DNA of 13,197 nt from IMG/VR virus record IMGVR_UViG_3300012933_000236, positions 64,001 through 77,197 of that record, one strand, 5' to 3'. This DNA comes from a virus (taxonomy: Duplodnaviria > Heunggongvirae > Uroviricota > Caudoviricetes). Shown here piece after piece: positions 3-13,197 of this stretch. The notes under the pieces are model-generated. The model worked only from the letters and a program-made list of their open reading frames with translations, made no database searches and was not told the origin of the DNA. How positions within the stretch are numbered: position 1 is the first letter of the stretch; every line of letters starts with the position of its first letter. Position numbers and translations under genes: made by a program.

Positions 3-33
3 TAGGCTACCTTCGGGTGGCCTATTTTATTTT
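3..33 (+). terminator. Rho-independent terminator upstream of the lysis cassette
   Basis: 9-bp stem TAGGCTACC/GGTGGCCTA (one G-U) with a cUUCGg tetraloop, followed by TTTTATTTT. Confidence 0.9.
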
Positions 34-68
34 GTGCTAATTATTAATCTGAAGTTGAAAGTATTGAA

Positions 69-296
69 ATGTCTGAGCAAATTGAACACCGAATAATTAA
101 ATTAGAGTTAAAAGTAGAAGATCATGCTGAAGAGTTAAGAAAACTTCAGGATATCTCTACTAGATTAAGTAACTCATTAACTGGTATAGAAAACACATTA
201 AATCAAATCAAGTATTTGGCTATTGGTGCTGTACTAGTAGTATTATCTCAAGCAATCGGGATTACCAATGTTATAAAACTGATGTTGGGTGTTTAA
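69..296 (+). CDS. small coiled-coil protein with a C-terminal TM helix (XhlA-like; holin/antiholin candidate)
   Basis: 75 aa. Heptad-like N-terminus (IIKLELKVEDHAEELRKL...LTGIENTLNQIKY), then hydrophobic LAIGAVLVVLSQAIGI. First gene of the lysis cassette; its stop overlaps the next start (TAATG). Confidence 0.7.
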   Translation: MSEQIEHRIIKLELKVEDHAEELRKLQDISTRLSNSLTGIENTLNQIKYLAIGAVLVVLSQAIGITNVIKLMLGV

Positions 297-778
297 TGAT
301 TGATCCAGTAAGTGCCTTTGCATTAGCTACCGCTGCTTATAATGCAGTAAAGCAAGGTATTGAAGTTGGTAGAGAAATGCACGAAGTCTCCAAAGCATTG
401 GGTACATTCTTTAAAGCTTCTACTGATATAAAAGAAGCCGCTGAACAGCAATCGAAACCTTCTATATTTAAGAAACTATTAAATAAAGGTTCTGTTGAAC
501 AAGAAGCTTTAGATAATTTAGTCAGACGTAGAACAATCATTAAGCAAGAATATGAACTAATGATGATGGTGAAGATGCAATACGGTGATTATGCATATAA
601 TGAAATGCTGGAAGAACGTAGAAAGATTGCTGCAGATAGAATAAAAGCAGAAAGATTGCAAAAAGAATATAATAAAAAAGTAGTTGAAAACATATTCATG
701 TATTCGTTATTGGCAATATTATTATATATATTTTATTTATTAATTACTGCAGGATATACATTAATACAAGGTGTTTGA
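296..778 (+). CDS. hypothetical membrane-anchored protein in the lysis cassette
   Basis: 160 aa. Amphipathic N-terminus (MIDPVSAFALATAAYNAVKQG), charged helical middle, C-terminal TM (IFMYSLLAILLYIFYLLITAGY). Translationally coupled to the upstream gene. Confidence 0.7.
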   Translation: MIDPVSAFALATAAYNAVKQGIEVGREMHEVSKALGTFFKASTDIKEAAEQQSKPSIFKKLLNKGSVEQEALDNLVRRRTIIKQEYELMMMVKMQYGDYAYNEMLEERRKIAADRIKAERLQKEYNKKVVENIFMYSLLAILLYIFYLLITAGYTLIQGV

Positions 779-5627: not shown

Positions 5628-5763
5628 GGTTATCTTGATCTTCTGATTCATCTTTAATACTGTGTAGTTCACGGTGTTCTTTTACTAATTTAATAGCAAC
5701 CGCATACATGATTATAATTATACATATTAAAACTAATGCACTAATTACTTGTAGAATAATCAT
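5605..5763 (-). CDS. 52-aa single-TM membrane protein (not in the ORF track)
   Basis: MIILQVISALVLICIIIIMYAVAIKLVKEHRELHSIKDESEDQDNLDLTNKQ. ATGA overlap with the upstream gene; SD AAGGA. Confidence 0.75.
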   Translation of the reverse strand: MIILQVISALVLICIIIIMYAVAIKLVKEHRELHSIKDESEDQDNLDLTNKQ

Positions 5764-6320
5764 TTGTTATCCTTTTCTTTAAGTTTAGGGTCTAGCATAA
5801 ATTCAAGCAAGAACATTGCGTTAACGGCTACAGCAGCCATGTGAAGCATATCTGGTACACTACTATCAGTATCATACAATTCGCCTCTTCTGTGGGCTTC
5901 TAAGTGCCTGTATAAAGCATCTAGATATCTCTGTTCAGCACCTTGTACTTTCTTCCAGTTATCACGCTCTTTATACTTCTTAAGACCAACTGTAAGATTC
6001 TTAGCAATCTGTTCTAAAGCATAGGATGGAATCAAACTGTATTGCAACTTGTCATGATCGTATTTAGTACCGGGAGTTTGTTGTTGCACAACATCGGCAT
6101 TGTTCCAGTCTTTCATCTGTTGTGTATCTGATCGAAAATCTACTTTTGATGTTGGTACAAAATGCAAAGGTTTAGGATCATCACATTTCATAATTAGATT
6201 GGCATTATAACAAAGAACCGCTTTATTTCTAAAAGCACAATCTGTGCATACACCTGCTTTATCATCATCTTCTACAGGTGTATATTCTTTACCATCAATT
6301 TTAATGTTACTCAAAAACAT
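5760..6320 (-). CDS. dATP/dGTP diphosphohydrolase-like domain protein (DUF5664-type) with a Cys-rich N-terminal extension
   Basis: GTKYDHDKLQYSLIP...GLKKY..DNWKK...YLDALYRHL...HMAAVAVNAMFL pattern. Start moved to ATG 6320 (SD AAGGAGG). Confidence 0.8.
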   Translation of the reverse strand: MFLSNIKIDGKEYTPVEDDDKAGVCTDCAFRNKAVLCYNANLIMKCDDPKPLHFVPTSKVDFRSDTQQMKDWNNADVVQQQTPGTKYDHDKLQYSLIPSYALEQIAKNLTVGLKKYKERDNWKKVQGAEQRYLDALYRHLEAHRRGELYDTDSSVPDMLHMAAVAVNAMFLLEFMLDPKLKEKDNK

Positions 6321-6322
6321 GT

Positions 6323-6826
6323 TCAATCCTCCTTAAAACCATTCAAGAGTAAATCTGCAGGAATGCAGTTACTTAGATCATTACTTTCAAATCCAATAGG
6401 TTTCATAACCTTATCTTTTAGATTCTTAATTACAAATAACTCATACTCAGAATTATACTCAACAACAACCTGTACACCATCTTGCTCATACATCTGTGCA
6501 GTTTGAATTGCAGTTAGTTCTTTTGAAGGGTATTTAGTTAAGTTATTGTAAGCAGTATCTCGCATTGCTTTGTTCATGTCTACACCAAGGTATTCTAGCT
6601 TTTGTGCAAGACCTAATGCTGTAACTAAAACATCCACCACACCATCTACTACTTCTTTAGCGTTGTTACGGTCAATACCTTTTTCTTTAATCTCTTTAGT
6701 TTCTTCTAAGATTAAGTTATATTGAAACTCAATATCATTTAAAGTAGTTAGTTTGTGCTTACCTGCGATTTCATTGAAAGCATTGCAGTCCATTTGAAAA
6801 TCTGAAATATTGTAATCGTTATTCAT
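6323..6826 (-). CDS. MazG-like / all-alpha NTP pyrophosphohydrolase
   Basis: LILEETKEIKE...AKEVVDGVVDVLVTALG acidic helical motif, followed by NNLTKY and KVMKP. Confidence 0.8.
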   Translation of the reverse strand: MNNDYNISDFQMDCNAFNEIAGKHKLTTLNDIEFQYNLILEETKEIKEKGIDRNNAKEVVDGVVDVLVTALGLAQKLEYLGVDMNKAMRDTAYNNLTKYPSKELTAIQTAQMYEQDGVQVVVEYNSEYELFVIKNLKDKVMKPIGFESNDLSNCIPADLLLNGFKED

Positions 6827-10213: not shown

Positions 10214-10855
10214 TTAAAATGGAATGTCATCGTCATCATCAAGGGTTGCTGCAGGTTTTGCAGTAGGTTTAGCTTTAGCTGCAGCTTTAGCTTTTGGTGC
10301 TGGCGCTGGTTCTTCAGCTTCATCATCAAATTCGCTACCAGCTTCGTATCCTGCACCCTCTTCGACTACATATTCAATCATTGATGTAACTAGTACATTC
10401 TTTAGATAGAAAGATGTAGTGCCATTGGTGCGCTCAAACTTATCAATGCTGATTGAACCGTAAGAACCATTTGCAGGTAGCTTACTGTTAGTAACATCAA
10501 CTAGTGCTTTACCGACTTTCTCAAAGACTTTTGGCTTGTACAAATCAGGTACAGGTTTACCAGTTTTACCTAGCTCTGTAGACTTACGTAATGTTACAAC
10601 CCAAATATTCTTACCTGCATCTTCTGGAGGTGCTACTTTATAGATACCTTCAAATTCACTGGTTTTAACCTTCTTGATTGAAGTCTTGGCATCTACTTGT
10701 TTAGCGAATGCTTCGTATTCATCTAGTACATCTTCATCAGTAATGGCTACCGAAGCTTTCCATTCATCTGGCTTTGGTGCATCACCTGCTTTAACATAAC
10801 CTTTGACTGGTTTGTGTAGTTGTACATAGAGAAGCATACCTGTTAGTTTTTGCAT
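10214..10855 (-). CDS. ssb: single-stranded DNA-binding protein (T7 gp2.5-like, acidic tail)
   Basis: Beta-rich body, C-terminal DDDDDIPF tail, replication-gene context, SD AAGGA. Confidence 0.8.
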   Translation of the reverse strand: MQKLTGMLLYVQLHKPVKGYVKAGDAPKPDEWKASVAITDEDVLDEYEAFAKQVDAKTSIKKVKTSEFEGIYKVAPPEDAGKNIWVVTLRKSTELGKTGKPVPDLYKPKVFEKVGKALVDVTNSKLPANGSYGSISIDKFERTNGTTSFYLKNVLVTSMIEYVVEEGAGYEAGSEFDDEAEEPAPAPKAKAAAKAKPTAKPAATLDDDDDIPF

Positions 10856-10945: not shown

Positions 10946-10974
10946 ATTATAGCAAACTGCAAATGCTTTGTCAA
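10946..10974 (-). promoter_or_regulatory. consensus sigma70 promoter driving ssb and downstream genes
   Basis: TTGACA (10974-10969), 17 nt, then TATAAT (10951-10946) plus extended TG. Perfect consensus. Confidence 0.92.
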
Positions 10975-10992: not shown

Positions 10993-11067
10993 TGGTGGGT
11001 CAGACTGGACTTGAACCAGCACTATCTCGATTATGAGTCGAGGGCTTCACCTTTAAGCTACTGACCC
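10993..11067 (-). tRNA. tRNA with CAT anticodon (probably Ile2/lysidine type, otherwise elongator Met), CCA encoded
   Basis: GGGTCAG/CTGACCC acceptor stem, GCTT/AAGC D stem, CTCGA-CTCATAA-TCGAG anticodon arm, GCTGG-TTCAAGT-CCAGT T arm, ACCA end; 75 nt. Confidence 0.95.
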
Positions 11068-11079
11068 GTTGGTTATTAA

Positions 11080-11394
11080 TTATTTGTAAACAATAACTGT
11101 TTTCTGTTCAGGTGTTACAAACTTATAACCTTGGTATTCTGAACCGTAGTGACTTGCATACCAACCGTAGAACTTAACAAAGCAATCTTGATCACCTTTG
11201 CTAAACTTCCATACACACCAATAATCAGAACCTTGATCTTCACCACCATATCGATCTACTGCTGCGTAATTGATCATCTGATTGTCAAGTGCAGTGGCAA
11301 TTTCACCATAACAACCGTATTCATCCATCATTTGTTCCAGTGAACCATCAGTTACAGCATCAAATATAACCTGTAAAGCTTCTTTAAGATTCAT
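11080..11394 (-). CDS. hypothetical protein, paralog 3 (GGEDQGSDYW family)
   Basis: 104 aa from ATG 11394 (SD AAGGAG). Shares VDRYGGEDQGSDYW and the WYASxxGxxY..V.P..KT..V motif with the neighbouring gene. Confidence 0.85.
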   Translation of the reverse strand: MNLKEALQVIFDAVTDGSLEQMMDEYGCYGEIATALDNQMINYAAVDRYGGEDQGSDYWCVWKFSKGDQDCFVKFYGWYASHYGSEYQGYKFVTPEQKTVIVYK

Positions 11395-11590
11395 ATACAA
11401 CTCCTTATTTCTTTACAAACACTGTAATAGTTTTCTCTACGGGTTTAACCTCATAGAATTCTTCGTAAGTTGAACCTTCATATGATGCGTACCAACCTTG
11501 GAACTGAATGAATACAACTTCCATTCCATCAGTAAATGAATAAACACTCCAGTAGTCAGAACCTTGATCTTCACCACCATAACGATCTAC
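11225..11590. repeat. dispersed direct repeat: 11225-11259 and 11556-11590 (26 nt identical, 34/35 overall)
   Basis: TCAGAACCTTGATCTTCACCACCATA occurs at 11225-11250 and 11556-11581, each followed by one variable base and CGATCTAC. Confidence 0.95.
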
Positions 11591-11752
11591 AAGTTCAAAT
11601 TTGATTTTAGCTTCAGTAAGTTGTTTTTTGAATTCTACAACGCTATCGTCATCCCATTTAGAAAGTTCAATACCAATTTCACAATTAAAAAACTCACGTT
11701 TAACATCTTCATCAGCTTCTGCAAGCAAAGCATCAATTTTATCTTTTAACAT
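11405..11752 (-). CDS. hypothetical protein, paralog 2 (GGEDQGSDYW family)
   Basis: 115 aa from ATG 11752 (SD AAGGA). The longer ORF call starting at 11932 overlaps the real upstream gene. Confidence 0.85.
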   Translation of the reverse strand: MLKDKIDALLAEADEDVKREFFNCEIGIELSKWDDDSVVEFKKQLTEAKIKFELVDRYGGEDQGSDYWSVYSFTDGMEVVFIQFQGWYASYEGSTYEEFYEVKPVEKTITVFVKK

Positions 11753-11762
11753 ATTGTTCCTT

Positions 11763-12254
11763 TCAAGGGTTGTAAGCGGTAAATACTGTGCATGTAATTT
11801 GTTTTGGTTGTACAAAAGAAAAACCACTATACTCATTACCATTGTATGATGAATATTGGCAATTAATTTTAACATGACCAACAACTTGTTTATTTTCAAG
11901 AATAGCAAACACAGTATATACAGGATATTCACTTAGGTCATTGTCATCAATACTAGATGAGCTATTATGATACAGGTCGTTATCAAATGTAGCAGAATCG
12001 TACTTAACACTCAGATTGACTTCATGAAGATGTGCATTAATTTCATTCTCAATACCATATTCAGGTTTATTACCTCTAAGGCAATTGACAATATCTTGTC
12101 TATTACCTACAAGATACTTTTTAAAGGCAGTCTCAAAGCGTTTATTCCAAGGTAATGCCGTTTGAAGTTGCTTGATCTTCTCTGCAGCTTCTTTTTGAAT
12201 CTGAGCAATCTGCTGCTCTACTGTAGGTTCAGCTACAGCTTTAGTTCGTGCCAT
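11763..12254 (-). CDS. hypothetical protein, diverged paralog 1 with an N-terminal coiled coil
   Basis: C-terminus YSSYNGNEYSGFSFVQPKQITCTVF aligns with YASHYGSEYQGYKFVTPEQKTVIVY and YASYEGSTYEEFYEVKPVEKTITVF. SD AAGGA. Confidence 0.8.
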   Translation of the reverse strand: MARTKAVAEPTVEQQIAQIQKEAAEKIKQLQTALPWNKRFETAFKKYLVGNRQDIVNCLRGNKPEYGIENEINAHLHEVNLSVKYDSATFDNDLYHNSSSSIDDNDLSEYPVYTVFAILENKQVVGHVKINCQYSSYNGNEYSGFSFVQPKQITCTVFTAYNP

Positions 12255-13059
12255 GTTCTAGTTCCTTTCTAATGTTTTCAAACTTTATTGTATCACACAA
12301 ATCAAAGATTTCAGGATAGTTATCTATCGCAAAATCTCTAAACCAACCACTACATAATGTAGTACACACTTTATCAAGTGCTTTGAGATAAGCATGTCTT
12401 GGTGCATAATTCCAGTTACTTGGTACAAGAAAGCGTTCAATTGCAATGACTTGTGTTTCTTCAGCTACGCATTTGATTTTATCATCATTTGATAGCTTGT
12501 CCCACAAATCTTTGTCACACCATGCACTGCTTGCATCACGTTGAAGCTGAGTATACAATGGTTTATCGTGATATGCAACAAGTTCATGCAAATAATCATG
12601 ATTGTATTTCTTCTCAACATAATCATCAAAGAAGTCTTCTACAGATTTCTTCAAACTCGGATGACCTTGTGGATAAGCTGCCATAGTCAACTTTGTTCTA
12701 TTCTCAAGGATAAGTTCATCAACTTTTGTAAACTCTGCACGATATCTTGCAAGATGCTTATGATAGTGCGTAATGTGCTTTTGAAAGCTTAGATCACGCC
12801 ACAGGTGACTGCGTTTGATGATTGCTAGTCCAATCGGATTAACGATGTATACACGTTGACCTGCAATCTCAAAGTAATCATCAGATGCATACTTTTGTAG
12901 ATCAGAGCTACCTAGTGCATTAAAAGCATGATGTTCAATGCGTTTAGTATCATCTTCAATTTTATGCAAGCTAATAATGTCCCAATCAGCATTGGGTTTG
13001 CACTGGAAGTTCGGAGTCCAATGTTCCAATGCACGAGAACCAATCAGTAGGTTTTTCAT
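12241..13059 (-). CDS. putative Pol-beta-superfamily nucleotidyltransferase with a helical C-terminal domain
   Basis: N-terminal hG[GS] motif LIGSRA (G7,S8), then DWDII (D25,D27). SD AAGGAG. The ORF is solid; the function is inferred from the motif. Confidence 0.65.
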   Translation of the reverse strand: MKNLLIGSRALEHWTPNFQCKPNADWDIISLHKIEDDTKRIEHHAFNALGSSDLQKYASDDYFEIAGQRVYIVNPIGLAIIKRSHLWRDLSFQKHITHYHKHLARYRAEFTKVDELILENRTKLTMAAYPQGHPSLKKSVEDFFDDYVEKKYNHDYLHELVAYHDKPLYTQLQRDASSAWCDKDLWDKLSNDDKIKCVAEETQVIAIERFLVPSNWNYAPRHAYLKALDKVCTTLCSGWFRDFAIDNYPEIFDLCDTIKFENIRKELEHGTN

Positions 13060-13069
13060 ATTACTCCTT

Positions 13070-13174
13070 AGTTATAGTTCAATATATTCCGTATCTTAGT
13101 TAAGTCACTCCCTACTTAACCCAAATAGTAAACCCCGGACGCTTACCCAACCTGAAATATACTGAACTATAACC
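13070..13174 (-). ncRNA. structured RNA element: 20-21-bp closing helix enclosing two hairpins
   Basis: Arms 13154-13173 and 13071-13090 pair fully on the minus strand, with both deviations being G-U. Internal hairpins at 13128-13146 and 13099-13120. Confidence 0.7.
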
Positions 13175-13197
13175 TCTGGTCCCTAAACCAGTATTAT

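Follow-up and report, generated by a model that had tools for sequence, protein, structure and literature searches.

A nucleotidyltransferase-partner module and a structured RNA in a phage tRNA operon

We analyzed a stretch of 13,197 nucleotides from a tailed phage (Caudoviricetes; IMG/VR record IMGVR_UViG_3300012933_000236, positions 64,001 to 77,197), called the window below. It covers the final 13.2 kb of the record, which is 77,197 bp long. The source is described as a freshwater phage and its nearest isolate is Limnohabitans phage DC31 (83% DNA identity). On the minus strand, where all features of the module lie, the window encodes part of a structured RNA, a protein resembling nucleotidyltransferases (NTases), three small proteins designated P2, P3, and P4, and a transfer RNA (tRNA). 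An initial annotation made from the sequence had proposed these parts to be one four-part system. We find instead that the locus is a phage tRNA operon hosting a separately inherited protein module, which consists of the NTase and its acidic partner proteins, and that the RNA travels as a passenger with phage tRNA arrays. Our best explanation joins these elements with a putative transfer of nucleotides to the 3' ends of tRNA or other RNAs that would be regulated by the partners. Taken as a whole, we give this explanation an even chance of being correct.

The enzyme and its partners are encoded as a module

In the window the NTase-like open reading frame (ORF) (12241..13059, minus strand; 272 residues) is preceded by the Shine-Dalgarno (SD) sequence AAGGAG. 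P2 (11763..12254; 163 residues) overlaps the NTase stop by 14 nt and is followed after a 10-nt gap by P3 (11405..11752; 115 residues), after a second 10-nt gap by P4 (11080..11394; 104 residues), and 12 nt past the P4 stop by a tRNA-Met(CAU) gene (10993..11067), all on the minus strand. These parts, their coordinates, and their spacing are as given in the initial annotation.

Homologous enzymes fell into 34 clusters at 75% identity. A partner gene was present in 33 of the clusters, the exception being an overlap artefact beyond the distance window used. In each of the 37 loci with downstream sequence the enzyme gene is followed by a partner gene and, starting from the partner, the enzyme gene was found directly upstream in 77 of 80 loci. 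In distant loci the starts and stops of the two genes overlap by 4-14 nt. Natural fusions were also found: locus L088 contains a single ORF of 382 residues that matches both the enzyme and the partner profiles, and a 383-residue protein of Alteromonas phage PT11-V22 that carries DUF7275, one of the two domains of the enzyme, matches the partner model. The chromosome of Brevibacterium album encodes an enzyme of 27% identity with a partner-like ORF behind it, and Gordonia phage OneUp encodes the enzyme as gp10 (E 6e-26) and two partners as gp11 and gp12 (E 2e-15 and 4e-20), the stops and starts of the three genes overlapping. The enzyme and one to three copies of the partner are a translationally coupled module, almost always adjacent and sometimes fused, and the suggestion that NTase homologs would co-occur with proteins containing a GGEDQG motif is borne out. 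Prediction of a complex between the enzyme and P3, both entered as alignments, gave a score of 0.03 against a mark of 0.32, which is no verdict and was used neither way.

The enzyme is a predicted Pol-beta nucleotidyltransferase of MenT-like shape

The enzyme is composed of an N-terminal DNA polymerase beta (Pol-beta) core, DUF7277, and a helical domain, DUF7275. It is a full member of both Pfam families (DUF7275, E 2.6e-61 and 207.2 bits; DUF7277, E 2.6e-6 and 28.5 bits; cut-offs 27), both profiles are matched by all 31 aligned homologs, and the family corresponds to PHROGs 2141 and 6944. Residues G7, S8, D25, D27, E42, H44, K82, R83, S84, and H85 are invariant in the 31 homologs (to 48% identity), as are D146, K150, H154, D155, and H158. 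The Pol-beta signature, hG[GS] and, 9-20 residues further on, [DE]h[DE]h on the next strand, is present as LIGS (GS at 7-8) and D25-W-D27-I, and the GS/DxD motif is retained in OneUp gp10 and in T-even-type homologs. For the third acidic residue, which such enzymes have on a neighboring strand, E42 is a candidate; it and H44 are invariant and lie on a predicted strand (residues 41-44). The GS/DxD Pol-beta-fold assignment of the initial annotation agrees with these invariant motifs.

The AlphaFold2 model of the enzyme (predicted local distance difference test score, pLDDT, 90.9) was compared exhaustively with 48,161 Protein Data Bank (PDB) representatives. The ten best matches (Z 4.8-8.2) consist entirely of NTases or NTase-like folds, involve residues 1 to about 125 of the model, and agree with the alpha-beta-alpha-beta-alpha-beta core of the Pol-beta superfamily. 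The top match is MenT1 (Z 8.2, root-mean-square deviation 3.8 A over 124 residues), with an alignment that spans residues 1-246. Further matches are the C-terminal domain of AbiEi (Z 7.0), TglT/MenT3 (Z 6.9), MenT4 (Z 6.8), ANT(2'') (Z 6.6), and LnuA (Z 4.8). Foldseek neighbors agree with this comparison and the ESM Atlas neighbors are AbiEii families; toxins of the MenT type are therefore the nearest solved structures. At the level of sequence, none of the 31 members matches PF08843 (AbiEii/DUF1814) even at E 1, and no PADLOC defense-system model matches the enzyme. Neither CD-NTases (CBASS) nor class II CCA-adding enzymes gave a Pfam, NCBIfam, or PADLOC match, and both are absent among the best structural matches, although a missing fold match excludes no family. 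With no AbiEii/DUF1814 profile match and no defense-model match, the enzyme is, as judged from its sequence and model, a Pol-beta NTase of MenT-like shape that forms its own family. We found no paper naming DUF7275 or DUF7277 in a literature search.

Distant relatives of the enzyme were detected by tblastn in 736 deposited phage records. Among these are proteins of the RB69ORF134c type, encoded in the e.x region of T-even-type coliphages. In the T-even-type phages Shf125875 (L219:4225-5181) and PG7 (L220:2995-3912) they have about 305-318 residues, keep LIGSRAL...DWDF, and have no partner; their genes are located in the e.2-e.8 block of unknown genes, with genes of small membrane proteins behind them. 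The two domains are also found in mucoromycete fungal proteins of 694-752 residues that carry DUF7277 and DUF7275 together with a C-terminal DUF7276 (P0272, P0275, and P0276, from Backusella circina, Parasitella parasitica, and a metagenome). DUF7276 contains a D-x-Y-G-G-[DE]-N-Q...FW stretch that resembles the partner motif, but its comparison with the partner profile was not significant (probability 2-5%) and the relationship was rejected.

The partners are small acidic proteins

P3 and P4 are clear paralogs (37% identical), and P4 matches the partner profile with E 2.8e-32. Members of the family have about 100-130 residues, an invariant GGE[DG]xG loop, and a conserved Y-x-S-x-x-G strand, and the family comprises 865 clusters among 1.8 billion representatives. 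It is recorded in PHROG only (P3 being phrog_8206), and no Pfam, NCBIfam, or PADLOC family was matched. The proteins are strongly acidic: P3 has an isoelectric point (pI) of 4.36 and a net charge of -12.5, P4 has a pI of 4.35, and the family median is pI 4.4 with a net charge of about -12. The AlphaFold2 model of P3 (pLDDT 95.4) has three helices packed on a curved four-stranded sheet, for which only weak matches to NTF2/cystatin/IraD-like folds were found (Z 5 or less).

The claim that the three small genes are homologous stands fully for P3 and P4 and in part for P2. In P2 the last ~47 residues align with the partner profile (hhalign, 95% probability, E 2e-8) and the GGEDQG motif is missing; P2 is a divergent relative that retains only the C-terminal beta half. 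In the close clade, the same position is occupied by a P2-like gene. The ESM Atlas placed a cluster of Tad3, a Thoeris inhibitor, near the partner at 0.84, which is below the trust level, and the Pfam scan did not support Tad3, although the Pfam copy used may lack a Tad3 model.

The module is enriched beside phage tRNA genes

The module has tRNA genes at a distance of 1 kb or less, either upstream or downstream, in 22 of the 34 enzyme clusters. Most are tRNA-Arg(UCU) and tRNA-Met(CAU), with Ile, Leu, and Asn species also found. A random gene pair in a phage of ~75 kb with two tRNA clusters would show such proximity in about 1 of 10 cases by a rough estimate, and given this difference the enrichment is real, although it is partly inherited synteny. 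The initial annotation had suggested that the NTase and tRNA genes go together, which holds far above chance placement and also in an actinophage with different tRNAs: the OneUp trio ends 52 nt ahead of eight arrayed tRNA genes, the identities of which are others. HNH endonuclease genes were seen directly upstream of the tRNA/enzyme region in DC31 (L001:7623-7907, minus strand) and OneUp (L224:1822-2130). Such flanking genes fit a recombination-prone, plastic region.

Several observations weigh against our best explanation. There is no tRNA gene within 1 kb in 12 of the 34 clusters, and the counts are not independent because many of the sampled loci are from related phages. The tRNA regions of phages are hot spots for accessory genes, and the adjacency could be positional, not functional. 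The enzyme is not basic overall (near neutral, pI ~6.3), it does not match the AbiEii profile, and its fold scores are moderate, those of the small-molecule NTases ANT(2'') and LnuA being nearly as high. Moreover, no partner gene accompanies the distant homologs of T-even-like, Otagovirus, Phapecoctavirus, and Acinetobacter phages, and coupling to partner and tRNA is limited to one large branch of the DUF7277/DUF7275 family.

One alternative is that the enzyme modifies a protein or small molecule (the partner at its conserved Tyr/Ser, a host protein, a signaling nucleotide, or an antibiotic-like compound) and that its proximity to tRNA genes reflects insertion into a plastic region. The presence of ANT(2'') and LnuA among the structural neighbors is consistent with this view, as are the clusters that have no nearby tRNA gene and the HNH genes that flank the region, which are typical of plastic regions. 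The invariant glycine-rich acidic loop and the Y-x-S-x-x-G strand of the partner could be a ligand or modification site. A comparison can be made with the type VII HEPN-MNT systems, which similarly pair a minimal NTase tightly with a small protein that it could modify, but this is an analogy only, and the HEPN domain is all-helical, whereas the phage partner is an alpha+beta protein with no Pfam match. In contrast, adjacency to tRNA genes recurs among phages that are very distant from one another, the tRNA species vary, and both orientations occur; the closest structures are those of tRNA-modifying enzymes. We consider a protein or small-molecule substrate unlikely.

Comparison with MenT and AbiEii toxins

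MenT1, MenT3 (TglT), MenT4, and AbiEii are, like the phage enzyme, bi-lobed minimal Pol-beta NTases in which the catalytic sheet is N-terminal and the C-terminal lobe is helical, and all have a small cognate protein of unrelated fold as partner. A second alternative is that the phage module is of the toxin-antitoxin or exclusion type, with a MenT/AbiEii-type toxin neutralized through direct binding by the acidic proteins as antitoxins. The MenT toxins and AbiE components found as nearest structures argue for such a role. So does the partner, which in being small, of different fold, tightly linked, and translationally coupled resembles the MenA1-MenT1 pair, where a 68-residue protein blocks the active site (PMC10435456).

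The differences from these systems argue the other way. MenT and AbiEii proteins are chromosomal, whereas the phage enzyme family is almost wholly viral: 185,579 species genomes of prokaryotes contain five copies, three of which are on small contigs of metagenome-assembled genomes. The AbiEi/COG5340 or MenA antitoxin is encoded upstream of its toxin, whereas here the RNA or a tRNA is upstream and the acidic alpha+beta partner is downstream, often in multiple copies (up to three). Covalent enzyme-partner fusions exist, distant enzymes stand alone, and the matches to PF08843 and to the PADLOC models expected of such toxins are lacking. The phage enzyme also has a canonical DxD motif rather than the S/T-x-D of MenT proteins (PMC10435456). 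In MenT and AbiEii the C-terminal motifs III (Lys) and IV (Asp) form the active site with motif I (PMC10435456); the phage enzymes have invariant K82, K150, D146, and D155, among which counterparts of these residues may be found. We judge a toxin-antitoxin role to be improbable.

A structured RNA family of phage tRNA arrays

The structured RNA is ~290 nt in full (record 215..33 and then window 13174..13071, minus strand) and is cut by the window end. The last 23 nt of its core (13175..13197, the core extending past the window end into record 33-215) contain a small hairpin with the conserved loop UUUAGGGA. The 3' domain (13071..13174), which we call module A, has an outer stem of 21 bp that closes a three-way junction with two hairpins inside, and it ends 1-2 nt ahead of the SD sequence of the NTase gene; the initial annotation, which had seen only this domain of the RNA, placed its end at the SD sequence. 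This domain folds with a minimum free energy of -45.9 kcal/mol (z = -6.4), and none of 200 shuffled sequences was as stable.

A covariance model of the core, R1, was built from 19 sequences and matches this record at 33-215 (minus strand) with 165 bits. In the R1 alignment 95.3% of cells pair compared with 81% after shuffling, double compensatory changes are found in 14 of 27 pairs, a number reached by none of 500 shuffles, and the covariation score falls from 0.45 to 0.12 or less when the partners are slid. The stem of the UUUAGGGA hairpin covaries (CUGG/CCAG, GCAG/CUGC, CCUAU/AUAGG, and CUUG/CAAG). In the three-way junction, 10 of the 38 predicted pairs have double compensatory changes, each of them within one of the two inner hairpins. 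Covariation between module types is also seen in the outer stem (TATAGT/ACTATA vs. TATACT/AGTATA). The conserved segments of the RNA are AGUCCCG, AUCCCUAGA, GGAUUUC, and the loop UUUAGGGA. This loop is complementary both to the 5' GUCCC and to a loop AUCCCUA, either of which could be its partner, all three segments being invariant.

Searches of Rfam 15, GOLLD and ROOL included, with four versions of the RNA returned only tRNA and chance-level matches far below the gathering scores. BLAST against 50,697 phage records found the RNA in DC31 alone, where it is unannotated. T4 rnaC and rnaD are stable RNAs of the phage tRNA cluster, the function of which is not known. Like these (by description only) and like GOLLD and ROOL, large ornate phage RNAs that occur near tRNAs, the present RNA is a structured non-coding RNA of phage tRNA surroundings; it differs from GOLLD and ROOL in matching no Rfam 15 family and in having its own conserved segments. 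The comparative sequence data support it well as a new family of structured RNAs from phage tRNA arrays.

Three other readings of segments of the RNA were dropped. A reading of AGUCCCG...ACAGAA as RNase P-like found no support in Rfam. TATAAT within the RNA (record 51-56) was rejected as the operon promoter because distant copies have AATATG, there is no good -35 element, and a true consensus promoter is present upstream of the tRNA-Arg gene. The sequence GACACTATA was considered as an SP6/T7-type phage-polymerase promoter, but it was seen nowhere outside this RNA; the two positions listed for it are the two copies of the terminal repeat.

The interior of the 3' domain has at least four interchangeable versions among relatives, sometimes with two in tandem, and the closing stem is kept. 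Module B is found in L004, L005, L006, L025, and L029, a short module in L007 and L021, a module with a hairpin resembling a tRNA T arm in L033 and L034, and tandem modules in L008 and L019. The swapped interiors lie at about positions 2870-2995 of each locus, and one version contains the T-arm-like sequence GUCAGUUCGAUUCUGAC.

The distribution of the RNA is not that of the protein module. It precedes the enzyme in only 8 of the 34 clusters, and is missing in L012 and L032, whose NTases are 90% and 59% identical to that of the window and where tRNA-Arg abuts the SD sequence. A tRNA-Met gene lies between the RNA and the enzyme gene in L026, L030, and L031. In L004 the enzyme is 99% identical, yet a different module adjoins the SD sequence. 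Complete copies of the RNA with the long closing hairpin are present in tRNA arrays of phages that lack both enzyme and partners (L125, L144, L155, L157, and L166). In L166 the RNA lies flush between tRNA-Asn and tRNA-Ile and is presumably released by the tRNA-processing enzymes. Because its distribution differs in this way, the RNA belongs to the tRNA operon and not to the enzyme. The proposal that RNA, enzyme, paralogs, and tRNA make up one integrated system, the RNA being controller or substrate of the enzyme, can appeal to the terminal stem that ends at the enzyme SD sequence here and in close relatives and to the single promoter-to-promoter interval that holds all the parts, but it is already largely refuted by this distribution and seems to us very improbable.

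Layout of the operon and neighboring genes

The final 55 bases of the record (window 13143-13197) are identical to record bases 1-55. This direct terminal repeat shows that the assembly is circularly permuted, and the minus-strand unit thus resumes where the record begins. The structured RNA is interrupted by the window edge, and the operon promoter, the tRNA-Arg gene, and the DNA polymerase gene fall beyond that edge. A sigma-70 promoter with a 12/12 match (record 451..422, minus strand) lies just past the window end and is followed by tRNA-Arg(UCU) (record 410..336, minus strand). An aberrant tRNA-like gene (record 216-335, minus strand) separates tRNA-Arg from the structured RNA. Its 8-bp acceptor stem, D arm, and T arm are preserved, but it ends in ACCC rather than ACCA and has two hairpins (~60 nt) in place of the anticodon arm. 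ARAGORN did not call this gene and its folding energy is ordinary (z -0.5).

The tRNA-Met(CAU) gene at the other end of the unit was called by ARAGORN and matches Rfam RF00005 with 66.9 bits. Its CCA is encoded, and a G1-C72 pair shows that this is no initiator tRNA. Directly after this gene is a sigma-70 promoter with a 12/12 consensus match (TTGACA-17-TATAAT with TG; 10974..10946, minus strand), which marks the 3' limit of the operon and belongs to the next unit, the gene of a 213-residue protein. Within the unit the promoter-like matches reach 9/12 at most (16 in the region vs. 11.6+/-3.7 expected), none of them convincing, and no minus-strand terminator was found. On these points too the initial annotation was accurate. 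With no internal promoter or terminator found, co-transcription of the unit is plausible.

The surrounding genes serve replication and nucleotide metabolism and encode DNA polymerase, ribonucleotide reductase, exonucleases, and a protein resembling single-stranded-DNA-binding protein (SSB). The latter is the 213-residue protein (10214-10855, minus strand) encoded behind the perfect promoter. It has no Pfam match and only a faint match to the NCBIfam ssb model (E 0.086), but its C-terminus, DDDDDIPF, is a classic SSB tip and it is probably a divergent SSB. A 188-residue protein (5760-6326, minus strand), the gene of which is close to the ribonucleotide reductase genes, has the N-terminal domain of dATP/dGTP diphosphohydrolases (PF18909, E 1.2e-25), a possible sign of altered nucleotide pools or of modified DNA.

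Proposed function and implications

From the fold and the neighborhood we infer a transfer reaction like that of the MenT enzymes, in which the enzyme would add nucleotides to RNA 3' ends, most likely the acceptor ends of tRNAs. The acidic partners may bind the enzyme as regulatory, inhibitory, or specificity subunits. Placement of the module in a tRNA operon would allow its co-expression with the phage tRNAs early in infection, and the module might either inactivate tRNAs of the host or repair or mark tRNA ends that host defenses have attacked. The long stem beside the SD sequence is probably a processing or stabilizing element that sets the RNA apart from the mRNA. There is a growing view of phage tRNA genes as weapons against defenses that cleave tRNAs, and to our knowledge few phage enzymes that act on tRNA ends have been described.

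A more far-reaching proposal is that the enzyme and its GGE[DG]QG subunit are a new, phage-specific, two-component machine for modifying tRNA ends, a viral counterpart of MenT, that together with phage tRNA genes reprograms or protects the tRNA pool in phages from those of Proteobacteria to those of Actinobacteria. This machine would be encoded beside a new class of ~290-nt RNA that travels with tRNA arrays and has a function of its own. We put this forward tentatively, as a possibility that we think somewhat more apt to fail than to hold.

The enzymes are a large family without assigned function and with a fold closest to that of tRNA-modifying toxins, and in one large branch of the family the acidic partner is obligate and a location in tRNA operons is strongly favored. 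Because that branch includes the cultured phages DC31, OneUp, and PT11-V22, the idea is directly testable. The RNA family joins the few large phage RNAs that have no known role.

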